Source: Candidatus Parcubacteria bacterium
GTDB taxonomy: Bacteria > Patescibacteriota > Minisyncoccia > Phycocordibacterales > CAIJYI01
Length of the DNA stretch: 64,000 bases
Direction of reading: 5' to 3'
Assembly (NCBI GenBank): GCA_026395595.1
Contig: JAPLYL010000001.1
Location: forward strand, 6,174 to 70,173
How positions within the stretch are numbered: the first letter of the stretch is position 1; every line of letters starts with the position of its first letter. Below, piece by piece: positions 5,306 to 63,979 of the stretch. The notes under the pieces are model-generated. The model was not told the origin of the DNA. It was given only the letters and a program-made list of their open reading frames with translations, and searched no databases. A program made the translations under genes and the position numbers.

Positions 5306-5656
5306 TTACACTCGAGGGTAAACGATATTTACCCCCTGTGGTCCGTCATAATTTCCGAGAGTATTTTGCATAAAACCGATAATTCCCCAAATAGTAATGA
5401 GAACAAACAAAGCGACCACCCCCCATACCATGATATTTTTTCCTTTTTCGTTGGCGTTTTTATCCTCTTGATTAAGGAGAAATAAAGCTAATCCGTAAAA
5501 GAAGGCAACAAAAGCAAGAGTTCCGAAGATATTTATGAGGGATAATGTTACCGATAAAAACATATCAAGAGTCGTTCCAAGAGTAGTAAAACCAGAGACA
5601 GCAAAAGGAACAAAAGAGAGACTGCCTATAAAAAATAAAAGCATGTTTTTTTTCAT
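5306..5656 (-). CDS. VirB2/TrbC-like (T4SS pilin-like) small membrane protein, paralog 1.
   Basis: 116 aa. Signal peptide, hydrophobic helix FFYGLALFLL, a charged loop (EDKNANEKGK), then MVWGVVALFVLITIWGIIGFMQNT. This is a typical two-helix pilin architecture and is near-identical in its C-terminus to paralog 3. Confidence 0.55.
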   Translation of the reverse strand: MKKNMLLFFIGSLSFVPFAVSGFTTLGTTLDMFLSVTLSLINIFGTLAFVAFFYGLALFLLNQEDKNANEKGKNIMVWGVVALFVLITIWGIIGFMQNTLGNYDGPQGVNIVYPRV

Positions 5657-5729
5657 AGGTTAATTATAACAACGGTTCAATAAAAAAACAAACCGCCATA
5701 ATGACAGTTTGTTTTTTTCTAAATTTTTA

Positions 5730-6002
5730 CTAATTTGAGGGGATAGAGACTCCTTCTGGTAACGTAATGCCAAAAGTTCCAATAATGAGTCTCATGATCC
5801 CAAAAACACTGATCATGATAAACATTCCCAAAAGACCCCACACCATATGCCTCTGTCCTATGGCACGATCGGCAGGACTGCCGGCGATATAATATCTTGT
5901 CATTCCATAAAGGAACAAAATAGTCGCGAGAACGAACAAGAACCCAATAAAAGGATTGAGGATATAGGTGTTTATCTTCAAAAGAAGCTGATCAATGTTC
6001 AT
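5730..6002 (-). CDS. VirB2/TrbC-like small membrane protein, paralog 2.
   Basis: 90 aa with an ATG start at 6002. Motif FLYGMT...HMVWGLLGMFIMISVFGI. Confidence 0.5.
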   Translation of the reverse strand: MNIDQLLLKINTYILNPFIGFLFVLATILFLYGMTRYYIAGSPADRAIGQRHMVWGLLGMFIMISVFGIMRLIIGTFGITLPEGVSIPSN

Positions 6003-6022
6003 AAAACGGTAATTTCAGTCTC

Positions 6023-6421
6023 TTAGATAGTGATATTAATGAGTCCGCCACCGGTGGTATTGCTCGGGGTAACGTCAGGAAGAGTAAGAGTCTGTGTTCC
6101 GGTCGGTCCTCCGACATTTCCAATAGTGTTCTGCATAAAACCGATAATTCCCCAAATGGTTACCATAACAAACAAAGCGAGAACGCCCCAGATCATGATG
6201 CTTTTTCCTTCCTTGGCTTTGTCTTCATCTCCGGCTGCCAAAACGTACATGGCCAATCCCCAGAAGAAGAATACAACGACGAGAGTGGAAACAATCGGAA
6301 CAAGCATATTGACGATAGTTCCCACCAATCCGACAAGACCCTGCAAATTTCCCGCTGTATTTTGAGCGGAAGCGATAAATGGCGCAGCAAACGCACCGAG
6401 TACTATGAGTATTTTTTTCAT
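6023..6421 (-). CDS. VirB2/TrbC-like small membrane protein, paralog 3.
   Basis: ATG at 6421 (MKKILIVLGAFAAPFIASAQ signal peptide). Motif FFFWGLAMYVLAAGDEDKAKEGKSIMIWGVLALFVMVTIWGIIGFMQNT, ending in a Gly/Thr-rich tail. Confidence 0.55.
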   Translation of the reverse strand: MKKILIVLGAFAAPFIASAQNTAGNLQGLVGLVGTIVNMLVPIVSTLVVVFFFWGLAMYVLAAGDEDKAKEGKSIMIWGVLALFVMVTIWGIIGFMQNTIGNVGGPTGTQTLTLPDVTPSNTTGGGLINITI

Positions 6422-6545
6422 ATGAAAAATGTTATACCTTATAATTTTAATAAATAAAAAGAATGAATACACATTCTATTCTCTTTAATTGTATCAGATA
6501 ACGGAATGAGGGCAAATAAACGTGTGGATAAGCAAAGAAAAACGT

Positions 6546-6830
6546 TTATGAACTTGATGGCAGTTGCGGAATAAGAAGAGGAGAAAGATTAAATGTGTTC
6601 ACCAAAACTCCGACGATCCCCCACAAAGTGAACATCACAAAAATTGCAACAATGCTCCACATCATCCATGCCTTTCCTTTCGTCCTTTTATCATCATCAC
6701 TAGTGTTGAAGATAAAAACAACGATTCCATAGAAAAACGCGGCAAAGGCGGCGGCAAAGAGCAACCCCATAGCCTTGGCGATAAGCCCGATAAAAAGATT
6801 CATAATGTCTTGAAAATTGGTCGGTGCCAT
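6546..6830 (-). CDS. VirB2/TrbC-like small membrane protein, paralog 4.
   Basis: 94 aa. Motif FFYGIVVFIFNTSDDDKRTKGKAWMMWSIVAIFVMFTLWGIVGVLVNT. Confidence 0.5.
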   Translation of the reverse strand: MAPTNFQDIMNLFIGLIAKAMGLLFAAAFAAFFYGIVVFIFNTSDDDKRTKGKAWMMWSIVAIFVMFTLWGIVGVLVNTFNLSPLLIPQLPSSS

Positions 6831-6860
6831 ATAGTTTAGTTTAGATAATAAAAGTAGTAT

Positions 6861-7292
6861 TTAACCGGTGGGCCCTCCTATCTGCGCGATCGTCCCGACA
6901 ATGGCATTCGCCAAAAGCCACGAACCGAAAAGAACCGCCGTTCCGATAACCGCCCACAGAAAAGCATTTTTTGCAGAGGTGAGTTTCGTTTCATTTCCTT
7001 GCGCGGTGAGAAAAAGAAATCCGGAATAAAGAATAAAGAACGTGGCAACAGGAACGCCTATTTGCAAAAGAATACGAAGAACACTCTGAATAAATTCGGG
7101 TAAAGAGTGAATATTCGGAGTAATCGGTTCAGCCGCCAAGTTTATTTTTGGAGGAGAATCGGCAAAAACTGATACGCCAGTAGAAAGTAACAAAACAACA
7201 AAAGCACCAACTCCAAATGTTCCGGACGGGGGTACAACCCCCGTCCGGCGACGAGCGATGGCTCTCTTTTCATTTGTCATTTCGTTTTTCAT
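6861..7292 (-). CDS. VirB2/TrbC-like small membrane protein, paralog 5 (longer N-terminal region).
   Basis: 143 aa. Motif FILYSGFLFLTAQGNETKLTSAKNAFLWAVIGTAVLFGSWLLANAIVGTIAQIGGPTG, with a C-terminal GG as in VirB2. Confidence 0.5.
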   Translation of the reverse strand: MKNEMTNEKRAIARRRTGVVPPSGTFGVGAFVVLLLSTGVSVFADSPPKINLAAEPITPNIHSLPEFIQSVLRILLQIGVPVATFFILYSGFLFLTAQGNETKLTSAKNAFLWAVIGTAVLFGSWLLANAIVGTIAQIGGPTG

Positions 7293-7455
7293 TGGAAATT
7301 TGAAATTTTATTACCCCCCCATCGACCCAATCGTATTTTGAAAAACTTTTAAGGTGTTTATATATTGATTTAATTATATCATATCAATAAAAATTTCGAC
7401 GAAGTTTATCCACAGAGTTGCACGTACTTGTTGAATGTAGCAAACGAATACTTGA

Positions 7456-7488
7456 CTTAACATAAGTTATATGTTAACTTATGTTAAG
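7456..7488. promoter_or_regulatory. Inverted repeat (11-bp arms CTTAACATAAG / CTTATGTTAAG, 11-nt spacer) overlapping a TTGACT -35-like hexamer. Candidate operator/promoter for the small plus-strand ORF.
   Basis: The arms are perfectly complementary and lie about 120 nt upstream of the ATG at 7606. Confidence 0.35.
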
Positions 7489-7681
7489 TTTGTTTTTGGG
7501 GTTATCTCAAAAAAAAGAATGGTTTCTTTGAAGTTTTTTTAATAAAACGATAAATTTCATTAGAAATTTTAACTCTACAAAGTGAAAATTCACAAGAGGC
7601 ATACAATGATTAATTCAGAATACTACCACAACAAAGGCGAACAAGATGGGGTAGAAGGGCCTTGTAGCTACGATCCCCCCA

Positions 7682-7849
7682 ATGAAAAACTTTGATTTTG
7701 ACTTTGACTACAAAGAAGATTACGATGCGGGGTGGTCTTATGCCAGAGGTCAGTATGATTATAATAATGATTGCGGATACAAACCCCAAGGCAATGAAGA
7801 ATCATACGACGAGGGCTGGGAAAACGCAAAAGAACAAGATGACGACTAG
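7682..7849 (+). CDS. Small acidic Tyr/Asp/Gly-rich protein (MKNFDFDFDYKEDYDAGWSYARGQYDYNNDCGYKPQGNEESYDEGWENAKEQDDD). The upstream ORF 7606..7695 (MINSEYYHNKGEQDGVEGPCSYDPPNEKL) is probably its frameshifted N-terminus.
   Basis: Hand-translated, below the ORF-track size cut-off. It is the only plus-strand gene inside the minus-strand pilin array and is followed by a clean terminator. The two ORFs overlap at a C6 tract (7675-7680), and deleting one C fuses them. Confidence 0.45.
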   Translation: MKNFDFDFDYKEDYDAGWSYARGQYDYNNDCGYKPQGNEESYDEGWENAKEQDDD

Positions 7850-7862
7850 ATAGTTAAGCTGT

Positions 7863-7892
7863 GACCACAATTGAAAAATTGTGGTCTTTTTA
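7863..7892 (+). terminator. Rho-independent terminator (stem GACCACAATT/AATTGTGGTC, loop GAAAA, T5).
   Basis: A perfect 10-bp stem followed by TTTTT on the plus strand. Confidence 0.65.
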
Positions 7893-7908
7893 TATTTCCC
7901 TATTGCAT

Positions 7909-8244
7909 TTACCCACCAAGCTGACCGATAGTGTTTTTAACAATCGTTGCTACAATGATGGCGGACAATATGACTATGGCTCCGATAAAGCTTCCGACGA
8001 GCCACCCTCTCGCTATTTTTAACTTCCCAGGGTCGCCGCTTGCGGATACAAACAGATATCCGGTCCAAATAAAGGCGAGCGTAATAACGGGGATGCTGAT
8101 TCGTATCACGATATTCAACATCGCGGTTACGAATTCAAACAGCGTCCCCACTGCAGGCGTCGGAGAGGTAAGTTTGGTTACTCCTTGTGCAAAAGATACG
8201 AGGGGTAACAAATAAAGCGCGGTGATGTAAAAAAACTTTCTCAT
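7909..8244 (-). CDS. VirB2/TrbC-like small membrane protein, paralog 6.
   Basis: 111 aa. Signal peptide, then FIWTGYLFVSASGDPGKLKIARGWLVGSFIGAIVILSAIIVATIVKNTIGQLGG. Confidence 0.5.
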   Translation of the reverse strand: MRKFFYITALYLLPLVSFAQGVTKLTSPTPAVGTLFEFVTAMLNIVIRISIPVITLAFIWTGYLFVSASGDPGKLKIARGWLVGSFIGAIVILSAIIVATIVKNTIGQLGG

Positions 8245-9556: not shown

Positions 9557-9570
9557 AGTATAAAAAGTTT

Positions 9571-9609
9571 TTACAAGGGCGTACCCTTTTACAAGGTACG
9601 CCCTTGTAA
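9571..9609. repeat. GC-rich palindromic element (15-bp perfect stem TTACAAGGGCGTACC / GGTACGCCCTTGTAA, 9-nt loop). Same family as the element inside uvrB.
   Basis: It shares the 13-mer ACAAGGGCGTACC and its complement with 22923-22963. It is intergenic, between the SBP start and the methyltransferase stop. Confidence 0.6.
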
Positions 9610-9613
9610 ATAA

Positions 9614-10200: not shown

Positions 10201-10254
10201 CGGAGAATACACAGGACTACCCTGTGTACACAGGGTAGTCCTGTGTATTCTCCG
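10201..10254. repeat. Perfect 54-bp palindrome CGGAGAATACACAGGACTACCCTGTGTA|CACAGGGTAGTCCTGTGTATTCTCCG, built from nested TACACAGG/CCTGTGTA units around a central TGTACA.
   Basis: Exact reverse-complement symmetry read from the sequence. It lies between the methyltransferase start and the uvrC stop, with no flanking T-tract. Confidence 0.8.
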
Positions 10255-10411: not shown

Positions 10412-11614
10412 CTACATCTTCCCTCTTAATTTTTTGTGATACGCAATCGCGAACCGATGGGCTTCGCTGTTGCCGAGGAGTATTTCTTTTTCGTGCAAAC
10501 GCGCGAGTTTCTGGTCTCCGATAATGTTACGCGGCCGATGATGTTCGTCTTTGACCACGCCGAGAACCGGGATGGTATAGCCATACTTTTCAAGCAACCG
10601 ATCCGCCACATTTTTCTGTGCCAAACCGCCGTCAACGATGATCATTTTCGGAAAAGGCCATTCAGAGTGTTCAAGACGGCGAGATAACATTTCGCCAAGA
10701 TTTTTAGTGTCATTTACTCCTTCTCCTTTTATTTTGAATTTCCGGTATTCGCTTTTCTTCGGTTCGCCATTTTCCACAACCGTCATCACTCCCACCATAA
10801 AAGCCCCGCTTATATGAGCCACATCATAACATTCTATCCTTATTTCACTTGGCGGTTTCACCGTCAAGTGATTATTGCGTTTTAATAAAGAAACATCTTG
10901 AATATGAGAAAGAGCGAAGATCGTTTTTTTCACTTCGTTTGCTTTTTCAAATTCTTCTTTAACGGCAAAAGTTTTCATTTCTCTTTCCAGTTTTCCGATA
11001 AGGCTTTTTTTCTTGCCTTGGAAAAAAAGCGCGATGTTTTTTATATTTTTCGCGTACTCTTTTTTAGATACGGCGCCGGAACAAACGCCTGGACACAGTC
11101 CGATTTGCGCATTAAAACAAGGTTTTCCAGAATTCGGGGTACAAGTATCACGAAAAGAGAAAATCTTTCGCACGATTTTCATCGCTTCTTTTAACTGCCC
11201 GCCGTGAATAAACGGCCCGAAAAAGTAGGCGTACTTTTCAGGTTCCAACACTCTTTCTCTTACGAGAAGAACCCTCGGGTATTCTTCTTTAGTAATAACC
11301 ACATAATTCCAAGTTTTATCGTCTTTGAGGTCGGTATTGTGCTTCGGCTGGTATTTTCTGATAAGTTCCGCTTCCAGAATAAGCGCTTCCAAAACGGAAT
11401 CAGTTTGTTCATAATCCACTTTTACTGCCAAATCCAGCATTTGTGCGATAATAGGTCCGCGAGTCGTCAAAATATCCTTGCTGAAATAGCTCCGAACGCG
11501 GTCGCGCAGAGACGTTGCTTTTCCGATATACAGAATAGTCCCGCGGGTATCCTTAAAAAAATACACGCCAGGTGTATCGGGTAATTTCTTGATCTGTTCC
11601 GTTAAGGTTGACAT
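10412..11614 (-). CDS. uvrC: Excinuclease ABC subunit C (short form, 400 aa).
   Basis: GIY-YIG motif (GVYFFKDTRGTILYIGKATSLRDRVRSYF), a UvrBC-interaction region and an RNase-H-like endonuclease region (IECYDVAHISGAFMVGVMTV). Start set at ATG 11614 (MSTLTEQIKKLPDTPGVYFF). Confidence 0.8.
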   Translation of the reverse strand: MSTLTEQIKKLPDTPGVYFFKDTRGTILYIGKATSLRDRVRSYFSKDILTTRGPIIAQMLDLAVKVDYEQTDSVLEALILEAELIRKYQPKHNTDLKDDKTWNYVVITKEEYPRVLLVRERVLEPEKYAYFFGPFIHGGQLKEAMKIVRKIFSFRDTCTPNSGKPCFNAQIGLCPGVCSGAVSKKEYAKNIKNIALFFQGKKKSLIGKLEREMKTFAVKEEFEKANEVKKTIFALSHIQDVSLLKRNNHLTVKPPSEIRIECYDVAHISGAFMVGVMTVVENGEPKKSEYRKFKIKGEGVNDTKNLGEMLSRRLEHSEWPFPKMIIVDGGLAQKNVADRLLEKYGYTIPVLGVVKDEHHRPRNIIGDQKLARLHEKEILLGNSEAHRFAIAYHKKLRGKM

Positions 11615-12004: not shown

Positions 12005-12061
12005 CATTGATAATTCTAGAACCTGAATCCGAAAACCCAATTTTTCCGCACAAAACCCAGT

Positions 12062-12140
12062 TCGTCATCCCGTGCAGGGACACGGGATCCACGTAAGAGG
12101 TGTTAACGACGTGGATACCGGGTCAAGCCCGGTATGACGA
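12062..12140 (+). repeat. E-element copy 1. Structured GC-rich element: closing helix TCGTCAT/ATGACGA enclosing three hairpins (CCCGTG/CACGGG; CCACG-16 nt-CGTGG; ACCGGG/CCCGGT) joined by AT dinucleotides. Candidate four-way-junction ncRNA or MITE core.
   Basis: Read directly from the sequence. The same architecture occurs at 15533-15603 and 60139-60215 with compensatory stem changes. Flanked by the imperfect inverted repeat TTCTAGAACCTGAATC (12014-12029) / GATTCACAGTCTAGAA (12154-12169). Confidence 0.6.
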
Positions 12141-12171
12141 CGGGTAGTTTTCAGATTCACAGTCTAGAAAC

Positions 12172-16438: not shown

Positions 16439-17353
16439 ATGATAAACAGATACCATCACAAAGATCTTACGTGGGTTGACGTTGAATCGCCGACCAAAGA
16501 AGAAATTGCTTCTCTCGCTCAAGAATTTCATATTCTTCCGGCGCAGGAAGGAGAACTTCTCTACCCTTCCGTTCGGCCAAAAATAGATACACACAAAGAG
16601 TCTCTTTATCTTATTCTTCATTTTCCCGCGTTCCGGCACTCTCACGGAAAAGACGCACTCCAAGAAGTTGATTTTATCATAGGAACCGGTTTTCTTATTA
16701 CCGTTCACTACGATACGATAGACGCCTTGCATAAATTCGCAAAAGAGTTTGAAGTAACTTCCCTTTTGGATAAACATGATATCGGCGACCACGCTGGATT
16801 CCTCTTTTTCTATATCGTCAAAAAACTCTATCATTCGCTTGAACACGAATTGGAAAGTCTGGAAGCGCGTCTCGGTGCCGCAGAATCCATGATCTTCAAA
16901 GGAAAAGAGGACGAAATGGTCGTCGTTCTTTCCCGAATAAATCGCGACCTTTTGGATTTCAAACAAGCCGTCCGTCCGCACGCGGAAATACTCAAAACGT
17001 TTGAAACCTCCGCATCAAAATTCTTCGGCGAGGAATTTTCATTCTATGTCCGTTCCATATTCGGGGAATATTCCAAAGTCACAAACATTCTGGAAAGTCA
17101 TAAAGAAATGCTCGTAGATCTCCGCGAAACGAACGACTCTCTTCTTACCACCAAAACGAGCATCATCATGAAGCGCCTTACTTTTGTCAGCTTCGCGACG
17201 TTCCCGCCAATGCTCATTGCCGGCATCTTCGGCATGAATGCGCAACATATGCCAATCATCGGGGGTGTGTTTGATTTTTGGCAAGTCCTCGGTATAATGT
17301 TCGGGACGGCAACGATTATCGTTTCGTTTTTCTTCTATAAAAAATGGCTGTAA
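16439..17353 (+). CDS. corA: Magnesium/cobalt transporter CorA.
   Basis: C-terminal GMN motif (GIFGMNAQHMP) and two C-terminal TM helices. The start is uncertain: ATG 16424 or 16439, and the ORF-track start at 16358 is unlikely. The minus-strand ORF 16184..16981 overlapping it is rejected. Confidence 0.85.
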   Translation: MINRYHHKDLTWVDVESPTKEEIASLAQEFHILPAQEGELLYPSVRPKIDTHKESLYLILHFPAFRHSHGKDALQEVDFIIGTGFLITVHYDTIDALHKFAKEFEVTSLLDKHDIGDHAGFLFFYIVKKLYHSLEHELESLEARLGAAESMIFKGKEDEMVVVLSRINRDLLDFKQAVRPHAEILKTFETSASKFFGEEFSFYVRSIFGEYSKVTNILESHKEMLVDLRETNDSLLTTKTSIIMKRLTFVSFATFPPMLIAGIFGMNAQHMPIIGGVFDFWQVLGIMFGTATIIVSFFFYKKWL

Positions 17354-21449: not shown

Positions 21450-22208
21450 CTATTTTTTTGAAATATCTGCAACCATAGCTCCGTGGTCGCTTATTCCAAA
21501 TCGGAGCGATACATCAGAAACCTCATATTCGGGAGTAGAAAAAAGACCGTCAACCATCAATTCCTTCACAGCATCAGGATTGCGGTGAAATTTTTGATCA
21601 AGAGAAGTAATATATTCAACAGGAATGTTATCTTTAAAAAGTCTTGCGAGCCCGTCAAAAACTTCCTCTCCTCGCGGAGCGTTAAAATCTCCGGCAAAAA
21701 CGATGCCATCTTTAAACTCTTCCATTTTTATCAAAAGGTTTTTCAAATCCAGACGCTGTCGGTCGTCTGTATTTCCGTGCGGTGTCCAAGTAAAATGCGT
21801 CGTGCCAAGCGTATAAGAAATTCCATCAACATTAACAACAAGAGAAAGCAAAACGCATGCCACGGTATCCTCTCCTCCTTCAACATATTTTACGTATACG
21901 GGGATATCTTTAGCGTCTCCTTTATAGTATTGCAAAAGCGTTTTTTCAACCGGAAGTTTCGTAAACATCGCCACACCCATGGAAATAATTTCAGTGGGAT
22001 TATCAAAGGAATCCGGCCATTGGAACATCTGGGCAAAAAAACCTTTCATGCCGAGCTCTTTTTCAAACATAGGAATGTCCCTTTCAAAAACTTCCTGCAA
22101 ACAAACAACATCCGCATTTTGTTCCTTCAAAAAATGAAGTACCGTATCATAGTGCTTGTCCCGTTCAATGTTTACCGAAACAAAATGAATCGATGAAGAA
22201 TTTTTCAT
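21450..22208 (-). CDS. Endonuclease/exonuclease/phosphatase (EEP) family protein.
   Basis: N-terminus SVNIERDKH...ADVVCLQEV and C-terminal SDH motifs are typical of the EEP fold. Confidence 0.7.
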   Translation of the reverse strand: MKNSSSIHFVSVNIERDKHYDTVLHFLKEQNADVVCLQEVFERDIPMFEKELGMKGFFAQMFQWPDSFDNPTEIISMGVAMFTKLPVEKTLLQYYKGDAKDIPVYVKYVEGGEDTVACVLLSLVVNVDGISYTLGTTHFTWTPHGNTDDRQRLDLKNLLIKMEEFKDGIVFAGDFNAPRGEEVFDGLARLFKDNIPVEYITSLDQKFHRNPDAVKELMVDGLFSTPEYEVSDVSLRFGISDHGAMVADISKK

Positions 22209-22213
22209 AGTTT

Positions 22214-24265
22214 TTAGTTTTTTTCCAATGAATGAATTTCGTCCCGTAAAATCGCTGCTGTTTCAAAATCTAACTCTTTGACCGCTTGCGCCATTTGTCG
22301 ATGTTTCACTTTCAAAAGTTTTTCCATGTCTTTTCCGAAGACGGCTCGGTCGGTGACAAGGTTGGCGTTTACGGCTTTTTCGTGAGCGCTTTCAAGATGT
22401 TCAGTAATATCATGAATATGTTTAATGATGGTCTTCGGTGTAATACCGTGTTTTTCGTTGTATGCGATTTGAATTTTTCTTCGGCGGTTCGTTTCTCCAA
22501 CAGCACGTTCAATAGAACCGGTCATATGGTCAGCATATAAGATAACTTTTCCTTCCACATTTCGCGCGGCGCGTCCGATGGTTTGAATAAGAGAAGTTTC
22601 GCTTCGCAAAAATCCTTCTTTATCCGCGTCCAAAATTCCGATAAAGGTGACTTCGGGAAGATCCAACCCTTCACGCAAAAGATTTACTCCGACCAGACAA
22701 TCAAAATTCCCCCGACGGAACTCCGTCAGAATTTTAATGCGGTCAATCGTTTTTATATCGCTATGCAAATACTCGGATTTTATTCCTCTTTCCTTCAAAT
22801 ATACCGATAAGTCTTCCGCCATTTTTTTAGTGAGAGTCGTTGCGATAACGCGTCCTCCTTTTTCTACGGCTTTTTCCGTTTCTTTAATGAAATCTTGGAT
22901 CTGTCCCGGGTAGTTATCTCCCAACAAGGTACGCCCTTGTTCCGACAAGGGCGTACCTTGTTGGGTTGTCAAGATTGGGCGGATTTCAATTTCCGGGTCA
23001 ATAAGTCCGGTCGGACGAATAACTTGTTCAACGGTTTGTTCGCTCTGTTCTTTTTCCATTTCCCCCGGCGTTGCGGACGTATAAACAACCTGTCCGATTC
23101 TTTCTTTGAATTCAGGATATTTAAGCGGTCGGTTGTCTTTCGCGCTTGGTAAACGAAACCCGTATTCCACAAGCGTTTTTTTACGAGAAGCATCGCCAGC
23201 ATACATTCCCTGCAACTGAGGAAGTGTCACATGTGATTCGTCTATAATCGTCAAAAAATCAGGCGAACCGTCTTCTTTATGAGGAAAATATGAAAGCAAA
23301 GTTTCAGGCGGTTCCCCCTCTTTTTTTCCGGAGAGATGCCGAGAGTAATTTTCAATTCCGCTGCAATAACCGACTTCTTGTATCATGGACATATCGTAAT
23401 TCGTGCGACGTTTGATGCGTTCCGCTTCAAGAAGTTTTCCTTCCGACTCAAATACTTTCAACTGGGATTCCATCTCTTTGCGGATGTCGGCAATCGCTTT
23501 TTTTGTTTTGCTTTCTTCTGTGAGAAAATGTTTCGTGGGAAAAAGAAAGATGTTTTTTGGTTCTTCCAACACAACACCTGACACGGGATCCACTTTCAAT
23601 ATCTCGGAAATTTTCCCGTCTTCAAGCCCGATATTAAAAACGAGTCTTTCCGAAACCGGCATAACTTCCACTCTTCCTCCGGTACTGCGAAATTGCCCGG
23701 GATTAAGATCGGCGGAGGTGCGTTCGTAGTGAATAGAAATAAGGCGATTCAAAAGTTCCCGACGCTCAAAACTCTCGCCAACCGCCAATTTCAAATTCTC
23801 TTTTTCGTATTCCGCCGGACTCCCTAAACCGTAAATGCAAGAAACCGAAGCGACAATGATCACGTCTTTTCTGGTCAAAAGCGATTGAGTGGAAGCATGG
23901 CGAAGCCGGTCAATTTCTGCATTGATCTGCGCATCTTTTTCAATAAAAGTGTCAGTGACCGGCATGTAGGCTTCCGGCTGATAATAGTCGTAATAAGAAA
24001 CAAAATAATGAACGGCGTTTTCCGGAAAAAATTCCTGATATTCCTGCGCAAGCTGAGCCGCAAGCGTTTTGTTATGCGCGATAACCAGTGTCGGTTTCTG
24101 GACGGTATTGATGATATTGGCAACGGTAAAAGTTTTTCCCGAACCGGTCACACCTAAAAGGGTCTGCGCCGGCATACCCTTTTTCAATCCGGAGAGGAGC
24201 GAGGCGATAGCATTCGGCTGATCCCCTGCCGGTTCAAATTTTGAAGAAAGCTTAAAATTGGACAT
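22214..24265 (-). CDS. uvrB: Excinuclease ABC subunit B. Contains an apparent ~20-aa insertion encoded by a palindromic repeat.
   Basis: N-terminus KFEPAGDQPNAIASLLSGLKKG...LLGVTGSGKTF (Walker A) and helicase motifs throughout. Start at ATG 24265. Confidence 0.9.
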   Translation of the reverse strand: MSNFKLSSKFEPAGDQPNAIASLLSGLKKGMPAQTLLGVTGSGKTFTVANIINTVQKPTLVIAHNKTLAAQLAQEYQEFFPENAVHYFVSYYDYYQPEAYMPVTDTFIEKDAQINAEIDRLRHASTQSLLTRKDVIIVASVSCIYGLGSPAEYEKENLKLAVGESFERRELLNRLISIHYERTSADLNPGQFRSTGGRVEVMPVSERLVFNIGLEDGKISEILKVDPVSGVVLEEPKNIFLFPTKHFLTEESKTKKAIADIRKEMESQLKVFESEGKLLEAERIKRRTNYDMSMIQEVGYCSGIENYSRHLSGKKEGEPPETLLSYFPHKEDGSPDFLTIIDESHVTLPQLQGMYAGDASRKKTLVEYGFRLPSAKDNRPLKYPEFKERIGQVVYTSATPGEMEKEQSEQTVEQVIRPTGLIDPEIEIRPILTTQQGTPLSEQGRTLLGDNYPGQIQDFIKETEKAVEKGGRVIATTLTKKMAEDLSVYLKERGIKSEYLHSDIKTIDRIKILTEFRRGNFDCLVGVNLLREGLDLPEVTFIGILDADKEGFLRSETSLIQTIGRAARNVEGKVILYADHMTGSIERAVGETNRRRKIQIAYNEKHGITPKTIIKHIHDITEHLESAHEKAVNANLVTDRAVFGKDMEKLLKVKHRQMAQAVKELDFETAAILRDEIHSLEKN
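22923..22963. repeat. Palindromic element inside the uvrB coding sequence (19-bp perfect stem CAACAAGGTACGCCCTTGT / ACAAGGGCGTACCTTGTTG, loop TCCG). Same family as 9571-9609.
   Basis: Exact complementarity read from the sequence. It encodes ...TTQQGTPLSEQGRTLLG... in UvrB, and also QQGTPLFRQGRTLLG on the opposite strand (spurious ORF 22895..23152). Confidence 0.7.
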
Positions 24266-27718: not shown

Positions 27719-27763
27719 TATCCATTATCCAAGGTCGGACCTTAGTTATTTTTTAGGCCTATG

Positions 27764-28674: not shown

Positions 28675-30012
28675 TTATTGCTTTTTTAATAATTCTCTCG
28701 CCGCTTTTTTATATCCTTCCACTTCCGGTTGTCCAAACGGATCTACTCCCCACAAATTTCCCAAAAATACCGTTTCCATCATTTTTAGCATGAAATACTG
28801 CCCGAGATAATACTCGTTTATTTGCGGCAAAACCGTTTCAACAAAAGGAAGTTCTTTTTCTTTGTATGATTCCATTGTCCCTCCAAGAATTGACGCCATA
28901 ATCTTTTGAAAATCTTTTGAAGCAATATCGGGAACAAGGGTTTCAAAAGGAGAAGAAGGCGGGATGGAAATATATTTTTCTCCAAAATCGGTTGAGTAAA
29001 TAAAGTTTGTGAATTTATCTTTTGGACCTCCCAAGTACAATTGTACCATAGAGTGCAAATCAACGGTCCCGAGAGACACTAGAGGGGTCATACCCGCATA
29101 CGCTTCATTTCCTTTTTTGTCATATTTTTTTCCAAGGCTTTCAGCGAAAAGCTGTCTTCCCCATTTTCCGACAGACTCCAATTCCGTGTGAAAAAAGAAA
29201 TGGTTATAGATGTTTAGATTTTTTTTATGAGACAAATAATCTATTACCGAGGAGGTAAGAGCGGGGTTTTCCGTCAAAGAGTCTGAGAGAAAAGCACCCC
29301 TCAAAGAAAGCCCTCCGGCAATAAATTCTGAAACATTGACTCCCGCCAACATGAGTGGAAAAACCCCAACGGGAGAAAAAACAGAATACCTTCCACCGAC
29401 ATTTTTCGGCACGGGAAGAACATTCATTTCTTTTTCCAGCGCAAGTTTCCAAAATAAAGAATTTTCATCCGTGGTTATCACGACGCGAGATAAAGCTTCT
29501 TTTTCTCCAAACTTGGAAGAAAGCGTTTCAAACAAAACCATAGCATTGGCAATGGTTTCCACCGTGGAACCGGATTTCGTAATGACATTCAAAATAACTT
29601 CTTTTGAGTCATGAATGTTTTCTTCAATAACTTTCTTAAGGATTTCCATTTCCCGGGGGTTATTCGTGTCTGAAAACAGCATTTTAGGAGACCGAGGAAG
29701 CAGTATCTCAAATTTCGGAAAGATAGCATCGTACACCGCCTGCGCCCCGAGATTTGAACCGCCGATGCCGACAACGATAATATATTTTAACGGGTTACCT
29801 AAAAATTTCCCCGCCATTTCTTCCGTTTTTTGGAAAAGTTTTTTGTCGTCAGGCAACAATAAAAACGATTCAGGAACGTCATACGTTCTTTTTTCAACGA
29901 CTTCTTTGAGAAACCCGAGATAATTGGAAAGAAGCGGAACGACAGAAGACACTTCCTCCTCTGAGATACGCGCAGTATCTTTGTATTTGATGGTTATGGT
30001 GTTTTGAGACAT
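28675..30012 (-). CDS. pgi: Glucose-6-phosphate isomerase.
   Basis: IIVVGIGGSNLGAQAV and GGRYSVFSPVG motifs. Start at ATG 30012 (MSQNTITIKYK). Confidence 0.85.
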   Translation of the reverse strand: MSQNTITIKYKDTARISEEEVSSVVPLLSNYLGFLKEVVEKRTYDVPESFLLLPDDKKLFQKTEEMAGKFLGNPLKYIIVVGIGGSNLGAQAVYDAIFPKFEILLPRSPKMLFSDTNNPREMEILKKVIEENIHDSKEVILNVITKSGSTVETIANAMVLFETLSSKFGEKEALSRVVITTDENSLFWKLALEKEMNVLPVPKNVGGRYSVFSPVGVFPLMLAGVNVSEFIAGGLSLRGAFLSDSLTENPALTSSVIDYLSHKKNLNIYNHFFFHTELESVGKWGRQLFAESLGKKYDKKGNEAYAGMTPLVSLGTVDLHSMVQLYLGGPKDKFTNFIYSTDFGEKYISIPPSSPFETLVPDIASKDFQKIMASILGGTMESYKEKELPFVETVLPQINEYYLGQYFMLKMMETVFLGNLWGVDPFGQPEVEGYKKAARELLKKQ

Positions 30013-30020
30013 GTTTTTAT

Positions 30021-30127
30021 AAAATTTCCAATTACCAATTTCAAATTTCCAATAAAAATCCAAATTTGATATAAAACGTCATTTCTTTCGTTCGTTTGGA
30101 AATTTGAAATTAGATATTTGAAATTTT
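30021..30127. repeat. AT-rich inverted repeat (~31-bp arms built from TTGGAAATT/GAAATTG units) immediately 5' of the pgi start codon. The proximal arm is near-identical to the dnaG leader.
   Basis: Arm 30021-30053 is the reverse complement of arm 30096-30127, with about 3 mismatches. Confidence 0.6.
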
Positions 30128-30134
30128 TTATTAA

Positions 30135-31370
30135 CTATCCCCTTCCTCTCGCAATCATTGCTTCCGATATTCTGGAAAGAGCAATAATATATGCCGAATT
30201 CCTTACGGTTGTTTTTTTCTCATTACTGACTTTCCACACTTCATCAAAAGAAGTCCTCATGATTTTTTCCAATTTTTGAAGCACCTCTTTTTCTTCCCAA
30301 TAATACCCGTACGCGTTTTGCACCTGTTCAAAATAGGACACCGCGACACCCCCCGCATTCGTCAGAATATCAGGAAGAACCATAACATTATTTTTTTCAA
30401 ACACGATATCCGCTTCAGGAGTTACCGGCCCATTGGCGAGTTCCGCCACCAGCTTTGTTTTGAGAGTCTGCGCGTCTTTTTCCGTAACAGAGTTTTCAAG
30501 CGCGGCAGGAATAAAAATGTCAACTTCCTCTGCGAACTGTTCTGTGGAAGTAATATCTTTCGCTTTCGGATACCCAGAGAGCATTCCTTTTTCGTCTTTG
30601 TATTTGGCAACATCGTCAACGTCCAAACCCTCTTTATTTTCTATAACACCTTTAGAGTCGGAAACGGAAATAATCTTGTATCCTGCCTTCTGCATAATCA
30701 TTGCGACGTTTCTTCCCGCGTTTCCAAAGCCCTGAATGGCAACCGTCGCGCCTTTTTCAATGCCAAGTTTTTTTGCCGCAGAATCAATAACGTAAAAACC
30801 TCCTTGTGCCGTGGAATAAGAACGGGCTTTTGATCCGCCAAGAGAAAGCGGTTTTCCGGTAATGACTCCCGCCTCATGGTGTCCTCTTATCGTTTCATAT
30901 TCGTCCAGCATCCAGCTCATAATCCTTCCGTCGGTGTTGACATCCGGAGCGGGCACATCAACACGATCGCCGATAATACCGGAAACGGCGCGGATATAAC
31001 CGCGGGAAAGTCTTTCCAGTTCTCCGACAGAAAGTTCTTTCGGATTTACGATGATACCGCCCTTTCCCCCTCCAAGAGGAATATCCACCACCGCGCATTT
31101 GAATGCCATCCATGCAGAAAGCGCTTTTACTTCGCCGATATTAACGTTTTGATGAAACCGAATTCCTCCTTTAAACGGCCCGCGCGCATCGTTATATTGA
31201 GACCGATACCCGGTGAAAACTTTCACTTCACCATTGTCCATTTTAACAGGAATGGATACCTCTAAAAAACGCTTCACCGACAACATTTGCCGATAGATAT
31301 TTTCAGGAATATCTAAAAACTGTCTCGTACCTTCTATCTGTCGTAAAAACTTATCAAATTCGTTTTGCAT
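30135..31370 (-). CDS. Glu/Leu/Phe/Val dehydrogenase family, paralog 2.
   Basis: GGGKGGIIVNPKELS and GFGNAG motifs. Start at ATG 31370 (MQNEFDKFLRQIEG). Confidence 0.85.
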   Translation of the reverse strand: MQNEFDKFLRQIEGTRQFLDIPENIYRQMLSVKRFLEVSIPVKMDNGEVKVFTGYRSQYNDARGPFKGGIRFHQNVNIGEVKALSAWMAFKCAVVDIPLGGGKGGIIVNPKELSVGELERLSRGYIRAVSGIIGDRVDVPAPDVNTDGRIMSWMLDEYETIRGHHEAGVITGKPLSLGGSKARSYSTAQGGFYVIDSAAKKLGIEKGATVAIQGFGNAGRNVAMIMQKAGYKIISVSDSKGVIENKEGLDVDDVAKYKDEKGMLSGYPKAKDITSTEQFAEEVDIFIPAALENSVTEKDAQTLKTKLVAELANGPVTPEADIVFEKNNVMVLPDILTNAGGVAVSYFEQVQNAYGYYWEEKEVLQKLEKIMRTSFDEVWKVSNEKKTTVRNSAYIIALSRISEAMIARGRG

Positions 31371-54679: not shown

Positions 54680-54791
54680 AATGCATATAAAATTAACCCA
54701 CTAGTATATTTTTTTATTTTACCAAAAATCAACAAGGAGAGTAAAGGGAAAACTTCTAAAAATTCCCCAAGGGAAATCCTTGGGGAATTTT

Positions 54792-55463
54792 TTACTTGTT
54801 TTTGCTCGTTTTCCATTCTTCTATCTTTTTGTGGTCGCCGGAGAGAAGAACTTCGGGGACTTTGTATTTCTTTTTTTGATACGTAAACACTTCCGGGCGG
54901 GTGTAGACTTCGTGGCTGGAAATGCGATTTTCTTCCAATGAAGCGAACTTGCCCAAAACACCTTCTATCTGGCGAGAAACGGCATCCATAAAAACCATCG
55001 CCGGCAATTCCCCGCCAGTCAAAACGTATTCGCCGATGGAAACGTCTTCCGCTTTCAAAATTTTCTTTACACGGGCATCAATACCTTCATATCGTCCGCA
55101 AATAAGAATGATATCGGTATATTTTTTATCAATGCAGCCTTTTGCATAAGTATTCGTGAAATTTGTTCCGCCAGGGGAGAAAATAATGATTTTGAACTTA
55201 CGTTTTGCGTTCGCCCGGCCTTTCGCTTTTGCTACGGCGCGAAGCACGGGGCCCGGCAGCAAAACCATTCCCGGACCTCCGCTGTACGGTCGGCCGTCCA
55301 CTTTTTTCCGCCAGCCATTCTCGCCGACAATCTCGGCATAGTCGCGGGGAGTATATGTTTTTATTTTTATGAATTTCTTGTCTTGCGCCCGCGACAAAAT
55401 AGACTCGCTGATGTAGGAGGTGAGAGATTCGGGAAATAAAGTGATGACATGAAAAGTAAGCAT
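54792..55463 (-). CDS. trmD: tRNA (guanine37-N1)-methyltransferase.
   Basis: MLTFHVITLFPE...GRPYSGGPGMVL...GRYEGIDARV is characteristic of TrmD (SPOUT fold). Confidence 0.9.
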   Translation of the reverse strand: MLTFHVITLFPESLTSYISESILSRAQDKKFIKIKTYTPRDYAEIVGENGWRKKVDGRPYSGGPGMVLLPGPVLRAVAKAKGRANAKRKFKIIIFSPGGTNFTNTYAKGCIDKKYTDIILICGRYEGIDARVKKILKAEDVSIGEYVLTGGELPAMVFMDAVSRQIEGVLGKFASLEENRISSHEVYTRPEVFTYQKKKYKVPEVLLSGDHKKIEEWKTSKNK

Positions 55464-60777: not shown

Positions 60778-60793
60778 ATAACAAACAACAAAA

Positions 60794-60830
60794 AAAACAC
60801 TTGGCGGTTTCACCGCCAAGTGTTTTTTTG
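60794..60830. terminator. Bidirectional terminator (AACACTTGGCGG tttca CCGCCAAGTGTT + T7).
   Basis: A perfect 12-bp stem flanked by A- and T-runs. Confidence 0.7.
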
Positions 60831-61608: not shown

Positions 61609-63894
61609 TTACCGCGCCATCATTCCTTCGGCGTCTTCAAATTTTATGGAGAGGATTTTTGAGATGCAGTCTATTCCGACGGTTACGCCGTAGATGATGC
61701 CGGCGTGAGACATGGTTTCGCGATTATGCGTAATAATGGCGAGCTGAGAAGTTTTGGAAAGCGTTTCTAGCATCATGCCGTATTTTTTGGAATTGGACTC
61801 ATCAAGAGCAGCATCGGTTTCATCAAGCACCAAGAACGGCGGCGGATTGACCTGTGAGACGGAAAAAAGCAGAGCAATGGAAGTAAGAGTCCTTTCGCCC
61901 CCCGACAACATCTGAATGCCCCGCAGGCGTTTGTGCGGCAAAGAGATGTTTATTTCCAAACCTTCCTCTTCGTCTTCCTCGGGGACTGTTTCTTCTGTTG
62001 CCATTTCAAGACTTGCATCGCTTTCCTCTGTTTTTTTCTTTTTCGGAGGGAGTACCGTTTTGAGAGAGGCCGTACCTCCGCCGAACAGCACCGTGAAAAA
62101 TTCTTGGAATTGTTTGTTTATCTTTTCCAACCCATCTTTGAATTCCGTCGTCAGTTTTTCCGAGAGTTCAAAGATAAGCTGGTGCAAAGATTCGGCGCTT
62201 TTTTCTAAATCGGTCAGTTCGCGGTCAAGAAAAGCATCGCGGTCAATCACCTCTTCATATTCTTTGAGTACGTCTTCTCCTCCGCCAACACCGAGTTCCT
62301 CAATGCGGATCTTCATGCGTTCCACATTTTTTTTGCGATTACGCTGAACTTCCCGGTCTTCAGTAAAAACTTCTTCTTTATTTATTTCCACTTTTCCGTA
62401 ATCCAAAATTTGAGAACCGACCAGAATGCCCGCCTCGCCGAGTTCGCTTTTGAAATCCTGTTCTTCTCTTTCAATCTCAAAATAGCGGGAACGGCAAGAA
62501 TTTACTTTCAAAGCCGCTTCGCTTCTTTTGGACATCATGCTGAAAAGTTCGCGTTCAATATCGCGGGTCGCATCTTTTTCTTTTTCGGCAGAGGCTTTCA
62601 TGGAGGAATACAACGAATGAACTCTTCTTTCTTCTTCGTGAAGCGCATGCATTTCCCTCTCCACACTCTCTTTTTCTTCTCGCCGTTTCAAAAGTTCCGC
62701 TTCGCTTTCTTTGAGTCCATCGTCTTCAACAACAAGCCGTTCTTCTTTTGAAGCGGATTGATCTATAAATCCGCGAAGCAAATTTTTAATACCGCCGAGC
62801 AATTCTTTCATTTTACCGACATCGTCCAAAGAATAGGCATTCTCAATCATTTCGTTCGCCATCTGTACCATCTCGCGAACACGGGAAAGCGATACGGGAA
62901 TATCTTTTATTTCCGCGTTATTTTTTCGTTCTTTTTCTCTGGCAATACGGCGAACCTCCGATTCTATCATTCCCTCCAGTCTTCCCAAAGCACGAGAGAA
63001 TTCGTCTTTTTTGTTCCGCACGGAACGAATATCGGCTTCCAGTTTCAAAATCTCCCCGGAGAATTGGCTTTCTTTCCCGTCCACAGAAATGGTTTCTCTT
63101 GCTTTTTGTATTTGTTCGTCCAGAATACGAAGCTCTTCTTTCGGGCCTTTCATTTCTTCTTCATTCGTTTTTTTCTGATGTTCCAAATATAGCTCCTCCC
63201 TTTTCAGATATTCCGCGTATACGCCGGCGAGTTCATCTCGCAGTTTTTTCACGCGTTCAATTCTCTCCACTTGTTTTTTCAAAAAGGAAATACGCGGGGC
63301 CAACTCTTTGCGCAAAAGTGAAATTTCCCGGACGTTTTCTTCCGTCTTTTTCAGTTTCCGTTCGCTCTCACTAATTTTGTATTGATAGATGCGCAACCCC
63401 AGCGCGTCTTCTATCATAATGCGACGATCTTTAATGGAAGCAAAAAGGAATCGGTCGGTTTCTCCTTGTGAAATAATATGATGGGCGGAAGAACCAATAT
63501 GCGCGACAGAGAGAAGCTCAACCACATCTTTCAAACGCACGGTCGTGCCATTTATTGAGTATTCATTTGTACCGTCACGAAAGACTTGCCGTCCGATGGT
63601 TACTTCGTCGTAATCAATATCAAAAATCCGGTCTTTGTTGTCAAAAGCAATTAAAACAGTGGCTTGATTTGTGCGACCCAAAACCTTGGAACCGTTCCAA
63701 ATGAGATCTTCTCCTCGTTTGCCACGCATTGATTTTATGGATTGTTCACCCAGAACAAAACGCATCGCTTCCGCAACGTTGGATTTACCCGAACCGTTCG
63801 GCCCGACAATAGCAGTAATGGGAGCACTGAAATCCAGCACTGTTTTCTTCGCAAACGATTTAAACCCCGTAATCTCAATTCGTTTTAATCTCAT
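61609..63894 (-). CDS. smc: SMC-family chromosome-partition ATPase, short (761 aa) form without an obvious hinge domain.
   Basis: N-terminus MRLKRIEITGFKSFAKKTVLDFSAPITAIVGPNGSGKSNVAEAMRFVLGEQS. C-terminal signature LSGGERTLTSIALLFSV...LVLDETDAALDESN (Walker B) and the D-loop. Confidence 0.75.
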   Translation of the reverse strand: MRLKRIEITGFKSFAKKTVLDFSAPITAIVGPNGSGKSNVAEAMRFVLGEQSIKSMRGKRGEDLIWNGSKVLGRTNQATVLIAFDNKDRIFDIDYDEVTIGRQVFRDGTNEYSINGTTVRLKDVVELLSVAHIGSSAHHIISQGETDRFLFASIKDRRIMIEDALGLRIYQYKISESERKLKKTEENVREISLLRKELAPRISFLKKQVERIERVKKLRDELAGVYAEYLKREELYLEHQKKTNEEEMKGPKEELRILDEQIQKARETISVDGKESQFSGEILKLEADIRSVRNKKDEFSRALGRLEGMIESEVRRIAREKERKNNAEIKDIPVSLSRVREMVQMANEMIENAYSLDDVGKMKELLGGIKNLLRGFIDQSASKEERLVVEDDGLKESEAELLKRREEKESVEREMHALHEEERRVHSLYSSMKASAEKEKDATRDIERELFSMMSKRSEAALKVNSCRSRYFEIEREEQDFKSELGEAGILVGSQILDYGKVEINKEEVFTEDREVQRNRKKNVERMKIRIEELGVGGGEDVLKEYEEVIDRDAFLDRELTDLEKSAESLHQLIFELSEKLTTEFKDGLEKINKQFQEFFTVLFGGGTASLKTVLPPKKKKTEESDASLEMATEETVPEEDEEEGLEINISLPHKRLRGIQMLSGGERTLTSIALLFSVSQVNPPPFLVLDETDAALDESNSKKYGMMLETLSKTSQLAIITHNRETMSHAGIIYGVTVGIDCISKILSIKFEDAEGMMAR

Positions 63895-63941: not shown

Positions 63942-63979
63942 ATGTTGTAAATTCTAGCATATGCTAGAATTTACAACAT
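63942..63979. promoter_or_regulatory. Perfect 38-bp palindrome ATGTTGTAAATTCTAGCAT|ATGCTAGAATTTACAACAT about 50 nt upstream of the smc start; candidate operator.
   Basis: Exact reverse-complement symmetry read from the sequence. Confidence 0.6.

Follow-up and report, generated by a model that had tools for sequence, protein, structure and literature searches.

The DNA analyzed here is a 64-kb stretch of a Candidatus Parcubacteria genome (hereafter the window; coordinates given without a locus label are window positions). It contains a uvrB gene whose product is an exact database match (P0001) to the excinuclease ABC subunit UvrB of a Candidatus Parcubacteria metagenome-assembled genome. Within this gene lies a perfect palindrome in which the arm CCCAACAAGGTACGCCCTTGT is followed by the loop tccg and the arm ACAAGGGCGTACCTTGTTGGG, and which uvrB reads in frame as QQGTPLSEQGRTLLG (Table 1). 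Each arm is also palindromic in its own right (ACAAGG-N5-CCTTGT), and the element is therefore composed of two inverted units, in a manner similar to doublets of REP sequences (repetitive extragenic palindromes) such as REPINs (hairpin-forming doublets of REPs) and bacterial interspersed mosaic elements (BIMEs). Its layout can be written as [S x S'] spacer [S x' S'], where S is ACAAGG and x is a 5-nt centre. By simple arithmetic, chance alone would yield about 2e-7 perfect 21-bp hairpins in a sequence of 64 kb, and the RNA of the palindrome region is predicted to fold with -44.1 kcal/mol, compared with -21.4 +/- 3.1 kcal/mol in shuffled sequences (z = -7.35).

An initial annotation of this DNA, made from its letters alone, had described a palindrome with a 19-bp stem at 22923-22963. 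The palindrome exists, but its stem is longer, at 21 bp, and spans 22920-22965. The same annotation had blamed the palindrome for an antisense open reading frame (ORF) at 22895-23152, and that frame indeed reads QQGTPLFRQGRTLLG, as it had said. An intrinsic terminator would consist of a G+C-rich hairpin with a T-run at the end of a gene; the uvrB palindrome lies within the ORF, and the sequence after it is GAGATAAC, which contains no T-run. With no T-run, and within a translated gene, no terminator role is possible at this site.

Table 1 Features of the palindromic elements in the window and in loci of relatives (locus labels beginning with L)
Feature	Position	Strand	Description
Host gene uvrB	22214..24265	minus	683 aa from MSNFKL...; intact, all conserved UvrB positions present
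Palindrome, in-frame repeat copy	22920..22965	.	46 nt, perfect, inside uvrB; 21-bp stem, 4-nt loop
15 extra codons, QQGTPLSEQGRTLLG	22919..22963	minus	UvrB residues 435-449, relative to an insert-free orthologue; boundaries ambiguous by a few nt
Unit 1 of the uvrB copy	22924..22940	.	ACAAGG TACGC CCTTGT (+ strand reading); own palindrome with 6-bp stem, 5-nt centre
Unit 2 of the uvrB copy	22945..22961	.	ACAAGG GCGTA CCTTGT (+ strand reading); reverse complement of unit 1
Intergenic copy, same family	9570..9610	.	41-nt hairpin; 16-bp perfect stem, 9-nt loop
Full unit of the intergenic copy	9591-9607		complete 17-mer
Partner unit of the intergenic copy	9573-9589		degenerate
Related intergenic nested palindrome	10201..10254	.	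27-bp perfect stem, no loop
First unit of the nested palindrome	10209-10227		ACACAGG ACTAC CCTGTGT
Second unit of the nested palindrome	10228-10246		reverse complement of the first
Possible single unit CAAGGTCGGACCTTA	27730..27744	.	between convergent genes; resembles GAGGTCGGACCTC/AAGGTCGAACCTT arms of the relatives' 36-nt family; assignment weak
Terminator-like hairpin AAAAATTCCCCAAGG gaaat CCTTGGGGAATTTTT	54758..54792	.	CAAGG-N5-CCTTG core as a single unit
36-nt element, L046 (3 copies)	10642-10677, 11338-11373, 16528-16563
36-nt element, L052 (3 copies)	10648, 16071, 17205
36-nt element, L029 (3 copies)	10648, 13404, 16169
36-nt element, L065	16165
36-nt element, L073	12967
In-frame hairpins in uvrC			L006, L018, L026, L039, L073, L076, L096, L113, L133, L161
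In-frame hairpins in tgt			L074, L145, L156

A comparison of close relatives shows both filled and empty alleles. The UvrB that is 98% identical to that of the window (P0002) carries the segment. Its locus, L082, comes from a separate assembly (GCA_943355145.1) and contains a 46-nt palindrome identical to the one in the window, which rules out an assembly artefact. The closest insert-free relative is P0003 (96% identity; locus L081), which is 15 residues shorter at the site, has RPILAVGQYPGQIQDF where the window has RPILTTQQGTPLSEQGRTLLGDNYPGQIQDF, and leaves a 45-nt gap at the palindrome when its DNA is aligned with the window. Together with P0006, P0007 and P0009, it represents the empty allele among close relatives, and solved UvrB structures have 21 residues fewer at this position. 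From these alignments, we conclude that the palindrome is an insertion that was copied into uvrB after the split from the 96%-identical relative. The bases immediately left of the insert (acaacccaacaa against gcggtcggacaa in the L081 comparison) have diverged far more than the remaining gene, and it is these bases that form the outer stem. The initial annotation had proposed an in-frame insertion of about 20 aa and had suggested comparing relatives for its presence or absence. The presence in L082 and absence in L081 bear out the insertion, as P0003 lacks the segment altogether rather than carrying a non-palindromic version of it; the insertion is in frame, and its size is 15 aa relative to the closest empty relative and 21 aa relative to the solved structures.

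A target-site duplication, as expected of a miniature inverted-repeat transposable element (MITE), is not definable at either the uvrB or the 9570 copy, and the element consists of inverted repeats only. Two candidate duplications were dropped because they do not fit the empty-site alignment: GACAAC/GATAAC, which flanks the uvrB copy, and AGCGGAC/AGCGAC, which flanks the copies in L083, L089 and L092. An alternative alignment that puts the empty-site sequence GTCGGACAA at the centre of the palindrome was judged a coincidence. A hairpin already present in the empty site was considered as a cause of the hot spot described below; L003 has one (ATACTT...AAGTAT), but this is not general. Directly downstream of uvrB, an Exo_endo_phos-type gene (21450-22208) is present in the window and in L081 and missing in L082, where a class II aminoacyl-tRNA synthetase gene (Pfam tRNA-synt_2b and HGTP_anticodon) lies 44 nt after uvrB; the Exo_endo_phos-type gene is thus a gene-content polymorphism among close relatives.

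The position of the insert in the protein was examined with an AlphaFold model of UvrB built from 55 homologues (mean predicted local distance difference test score (pLDDT) of 74.6). The model shows a strand at residues 425-429, coil at 430-454 and a helix at 455-468, with pLDDT below 50 at residues 436-447. By this model, residues 435-449 lie in a loop that joins a beta-strand to a helix where the second helicase domain begins. This is a predicted surface coil, the location that the initial annotation had anticipated. The insert would be translated as 15 disordered residues, and it is probably neutral, selfish DNA.

The uvrB palindrome is not the only copy in the window. The 13-mer ACAAGGGCGTACC occurs four times exactly, in both uvrB arms and in both arms at 9573-9607, and five times when up to 2 mismatches are allowed, a count reached in none of 100 shuffles. 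The stretch common to the uvrB and intergenic hairpins, which lie 13 kb apart, extends to the whole 17-mer ACAAGGGCGTACCTTGT. Sharing of the 13-mer had been noted in the initial annotation, which gave the intergenic hairpin a 15-bp stem; the stem is 16 bp, at 9570-9610. That annotation had also regarded a lack of further copies as evidence for a family-specific loop, and the four 13-mers and the 17-mer at 9591-9607 speak for a repeat instead. The intergenic hairpin fills the 57-nt gap from a methyltransferase stop codon to the start of a solute-binding protein (SBP) gene. The methyltransferases of L163 and L164 are 76% and 74% identical to that of the window, and in these two loci the same gap measures 16-17 nt and the hairpin is absent. 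This copy scores as terminator-like on the minus strand. Unit order differs between the two copies, with TACGC preceding GCGTA in uvrB and the opposite order at 9570. A flip of the whole element cannot interconvert them, which suggests that the element is assembled from 17-nt units.

A second intergenic palindrome at 10201-10254 has the same nested design. It adjoins a promoter block that is conserved in all three genomes, and it too is absent from L163 and L164. Its unit matches the unit found at the same uvrB position in L091 (ACAAGG GTAGT CCTTGT) except for one extra, compensated base pair, and the UvrB of L091 is 82% identical to that of the window. The terminator-like hairpin at 54758-54792 may, tentatively, be a relative or a source form of the repeat. 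A further palindrome in the window, a G+C-rich 12-bp perfect stem (CCGGACGGGGGT aca ACCCCCGTCCGG) at 7222-7248 in the minus-strand ORF 6861-7292, may be a second in-frame palindrome: it encodes RRTGVVPPSG in frame, close to the N-terminus of a small membrane protein.

A total of 162 loci around UvrB relatives were gathered, and the length of the segment from RPTGL to TTLTK was counted in 159 of them. The segment is 39 aa long in 82 loci and at least 42 aa in 56, with the longer forms mostly arising from inserts at a hot spot directly after RP(I/V)L. The nested doublet design of the window recurs at this hot spot in L091, L144, L001, L152, L057 and L046. The L091 insert, for example, reads ACAAGG GTAGT CCTTGT aaaaaa ACAAGG ACTAC CCTTGT, while those of L144 and L001 contain TGTCAAGG CGAAA CCTTGACA. 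L083 contains a single unit (CCAAGG ACTGT CCTTGG), and the inserts of L089 and L092 contain two units 30 nt apart. A second type of palindrome, CCTCCCCT..AGGGGAGG, is present in L110, L124 and L086, with a less exact form (CCTCCTCTT..AAGAGGAGG) in L023. Hairpins are significant in 14 of the 39 distinct inserts (p<=0.01, with at most 2 of 200 shuffles reaching the observed value). The long Nomurabacteria-type inserts contain no hairpin, as expected if copies decay. In four loci (L030, L043, L100 and L111) the insert instead lies at a second uvrB site near GGRVIA. At 4017-4112 of L111, just before GGRVIA, four copies of TCTAACGGG in alternating orientation form a BIME-like array within the gene.

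After masking of the insert, a neighbor-joining UvrB tree shows filled alleles interspersed with empty ones, and the empty alleles are of one length and carry an LAVG(N/Q)Y-like motif in three subclades. In our reading, the empty state is the ancestral one, and the filled states arose by several gains or by renewal in place. In Paceibacteria, as the relatives show, such elements have repeatedly been placed or renewed in this loop of UvrB as well as in uvrC, uvrA and tgt, and this repetition makes them a source of protein loop expansion.

The evidence for these other genes comes from a scan of the long ORFs of the loci for hairpins with a perfect stem of at least 12 bp and a loop of at most 12 nt. 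Perfect hairpins within ORFs were found in uvrC (at many positions), uvrA and tgt, in addition to the second and a third site in uvrB. Calculated from counts and lengths, their density is 0.31 per kb in uvrC, 0.16 per kb in tgt, 0.03 per kb in uvrB and 0.011 per kb in uvrA; our own estimates are about 0.017 per kb for other long ORFs and about 0.0008 per kb by chance. The density in uvrC and tgt is thus approximately 10-20 times that of other genes, in a sample of loci that are all centred on uvrB neighbourhoods.

Two families stand out among these hairpins. The first is a 36-nt element made of a 13-nt self-palindromic arm, AAGGGnnnCC and then the reverse-complement arm, which lies in frame in uvrB, uvrA and uvrC and always in one frame, giving RSDLKGSRGPTS-like peptides. 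Its arms are identical within and different between genomes. The second is the CACTTGGA...TCCAAGTG family, which in five loci encodes HLE...PS(D/E/G) within uvrC and tgt and resembles a terminator of the window at 60791-60829. A single reading frame is used by all five CACTTGGA copies and by every in-gene copy of the 36-nt element; this is suggestive, but the independent sites are few, and we do not lean on it. With palindromes in many relatives and in several genes, the phenomenon extends well beyond a single gene.

We favor, with a probability of roughly 0.7, the reading that the palindrome is a non-autonomous, hairpin-forming dispersed repeat of two inverted 17-nt units that was copied into uvrB. 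Copying would proceed through a single-stranded hairpin intermediate, by means of either a hairpin-specific transposase or ectopic templated repair. The insert would have persisted because its length is a multiple of three, it contains no stop codon and it sits in a permissive surface loop. Later template switching within the hairpin (quasipalindrome correction) would keep the arms perfectly complementary and lengthen them into the flanks. Template switching at quasipalindromes is familiar as a source of mutations in E. coli and phage T4, and it would keep stems perfect without selection. Two sets of copies fit such intramolecular switching. Between the orthologous inserts of L001 and L144, clustered changes add base pairs both inward (CAATG/CATTG) and outward (CCAT/ATGG), and in L029 each of the three 36-nt copies retains 13/13 pairing between arms despite their sequence differences, while the symmetry within arms decays. 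The strongly diverged left flank of the window insert, by which the stem is extended, also counts for arms that perfect themselves.

Mobile DNA of another kind is also present. A 139-nt element at 12021-12159 (flanks 12015-12168) has terminal inverted repeats of ~22 bp (TCTAGAACCTGAATCCGAAAAC ... GTTTTCAGATTCACAGTCTAGA) and internal stem-loops. A 94% identical copy lies at a different locus in L082 (9011-9149), and the corresponding window site (25113/25115) is empty. This element looks like an active MITE, and its differing positions in the window and L082 count for active mobile DNA in the lineage.

Several points weigh against a dispersed repeat of this kind. No transposase was found by Pfam among the 10 unannotated ORFs of the window, and tblastn probes with an IS608 TnpA, an E. 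coli REP-associated tyrosine transposase (RAYT) and an IS200 TnpA gave only chance-level matches in the window and 2.5 Mb of loci (~20 kb per genome). There is also no definable target-site duplication, and the insertion boundaries are ambiguous. Copy number looks low, with three to five copies in 64 kb and few extras in the flanks of relatives, unlike classical REP families. A single old insertion that was renewed in place, instead of repeated hits, could account for recurrence at the same codon. Translation of the insert is an inference. Finally, uvrB of the window and of L082 are 92.5% identical overall but do not differ at any of the 46 palindrome positions, where 3.5 differences are expected (Poisson p ~0.03), a weak signal that is suggestive of constraint or recent transfer and less easily reconciled with pure neutrality.

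The lack of both a transposase in the searched ORFs and loci and a target-site duplication is also what would be seen if no transposon were involved, and hairpins instead arose from replication or repair errors, by ectopic templated insertion, in which a short single-stranded fragment able to form a hairpin and derived from one locus anneals at microhomology in another, followed by intramolecular template switching that enlarges and perfects the palindrome. Sites would recur because hairpin-prone sequence is rewritten in place once it is there. Short-patch ectopic insertion is known from work on Acinetobacter. The clustered, compensated changes between L144 and L001 agree with such an origin, as do the stems that reach into copy-specific flanks (CCCA/TGGG in uvrB, TTT/AAA at 9570) and the L029 copies, with their perfect pairing between arms and decaying symmetry within them. 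Identical 17-mers 13 kb apart and near-identical units across genomes nevertheless need a copying step that resembles mobility, and the 36-nt family shares termini and spacer across genes (three times each in L046 and L052), as a defined element would. We consider this transposon-free origin unlikely. The conservation between the window and L082, at a gene divergence of 7.5%, would be explained if the hairpin were kept for a function, either as a structured mRNA segment that adjusts the expression or stability of uvrB or as the site of a genome-specific DNA-binding protein, with the peptide as a by-product. The great stability of the structure, the four alternating copies of a 5-6 nt word, which resemble an operator array, and the enrichment in nucleotide-excision-repair genes and tgt are all in agreement with this proposal. 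However, the close relatives P0003, P0006, P0007 and P0009 do without the hairpin, the sequences at the site are wholly different between lineages, copies decay to non-palindromic loops, and further copies lie at unrelated intergenic sites. The conservation signal is itself weak, and a retained function appears improbable.

An ordinary, lineage-specific UvrB loop that is palindromic by chance, or an artefact of assembly, can be given almost no credence. The loop is variable in length in many Parcubacteria, and many long inserts contain no palindrome, but the chance expectation for a perfect 21-bp stem, the unit shared with another locus and the 14 of 39 inserts that are palindromic at p<=0.01 speak against a chance loop, and the identical sequence in GCA_943355145.1 against an artefact. 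It is possible, although we hold this only tentatively and think it rather doubtful, that the elements form an undescribed class of self-perfecting mini-palindromes in Paceibacteria (Parcubacteria). These would be 27-54 nt long, consist of four alternating copies of one 5-7 nt word, spread without a conventional transposase and repeatedly target, or be renewed at, particular loops of uvrB, uvrC, uvrA and tgt. They would be a main route of surface-loop gain for the proteins of these reduced genomes and may be kept for modulation of repair-gene expression.

Other inverted repeats of the window are recorded here in their own right. At 63942-63979, a 19-bp perfect palindrome without a loop (ATGTTGTAAATTCTAGCAT and ATGCTAGAATTTACAACAT, directly abutting) lies ~50 nt upstream of the start of an SMC-like gene (61609-63894, minus strand) and looks operator-like; at only 761 aa, the ORF of this gene falls short of the usual SMC length. 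An A+T-rich imperfect inverted repeat at 30013-30135, with 40-nt arms that are 83% complementary, fills the intergenic gap 30012-30135, and a 15-bp perfect A+T-rich palindrome (7455-7489) lies within the 616-nt gap 7293-7908. Downstream of the SBP gene, small membrane-protein genes form a run (5306-8244) that by synteny would correspond to arrays of PF18895 (T4SS_pilin) genes in L163 (6868-9908) and L164 (4059-6747). No tRNA genes (ARAGORN) and no Rfam families at the gathering threshold were detected in the 64-kb window.

The colonization of genes by in-frame palindromic repeats is a textbook oddity of Rickettsia. The presence of a far smaller version, built like a REP doublet, in unrelated organisms with tiny genomes suggests that new protein loops arise in this way more generally, and it offers a concrete mutational origin for the many lineage-specific protein insertions in these organisms. 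The copies also form a natural series, from perfect to imperfect to decayed, in which one codon has both filled and empty alleles, and this series bears on how palindromes are born, maintained and lost. For genome annotation, the elements account for spurious antisense ORFs and for length variation of UvrB and UvrC in these genomes. In a literature coverage that was incomplete, we found no report of palindromic in-frame elements or of REPIN/RAYT systems in the Candidate Phyla Radiation/Patescibacteria, which is an absence of evidence only.

Several known systems share some of these properties. The hairpin elements of mitochondria (yeast GC clusters, double-hairpin elements and the repetitive hairpin elements (RHEs) of sponges) are mobile, measure tens of nt and have no known transposase (PMC2800124, PMC4478555). 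They populate compact, AT-rich genomes and, according to the same two sources, are occasionally tolerated in rRNA or protein genes at sites of variable length. The Parcubacteria elements resemble them in being very short hairpins with no known transposase. The mitochondrial elements, however, are organellar, mostly intergenic and unrelated in sequence, and in-frame recurrence at the loop of a repair protein is not described for them (PMC2800124). Terminators and terminator-like repeats, of which the SPRITE of pneumococcus is a mobile example (named in PMC10969869), also provide a point of comparison. The 9570-9610 hairpin is terminator-like, the 54758-54792 hairpin shares the CAAGG-N5-CCTTG core, and the in-gene CACTTGG...CCAAGTG family of relatives resembles the window terminator at 60791-60829. 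Only the 9570-9610 copy scores as terminator-like, whereas the uvrB copy has no T-run and lies in a translated gene.

A structural parallel exists with REPs and REPINs. REPs have a unit of 20-60 nt with a palindromic core, and inverted pairs of them form one long hairpin with compensatory changes; they also occur as singlets and in alternating arrays (PMC3116915). We take the 17-nt ACAAGG-N5-CCTTGT unit as equivalent to the palindromic-core unit of 20-60 nt, and the inverted pair in one hairpin with compensatory changes is found here as well. REPINs are extragenic, with only 14 of 1,067 16-mers overlapping genes in SBW25 (PMC3116915), whereas one of the three clear copies in the window lies inside a gene, and the three to five copies in 64 kb are far from the hundreds per genome of a REP family. 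Additionally, the spacers here are 0-10 nt, the in-gene copies are translated, and no RAYT was found in the ORFs of the window or the sampled loci.

Rickettsia palindromic elements (RPEs) provide a parallel in behavior. They form hairpins and occur both between genes and in frame within unrelated housekeeping genes, where the fusions are thought to lie on protein surfaces (PMC10969869). The likeness to RPEs that the initial annotation had drawn holds in concept, as an in-frame uvrB copy in a surface coil is accompanied by the intergenic copies at 9570 and 10201 and by relatives in frame in uvrA, uvrC and tgt. By size and build, it does not extend to membership of an RPE family. RPEs measure ~100-150 bp, encode a conserved peptide of 30-50 aa and fall into ten sequence families in an alphaproteobacterial genus (PMC10969869), whereas the uvrB element, which comes from Patescibacteria and measures 46 nt and 15 codons, is built like a REP doublet, with two self-palindromic 17-mers in inverted orientation. 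Set apart in this way by its size and build, it looks like a very small, translated variant of the palindromic-repeat theme at an apparently recurrent site.

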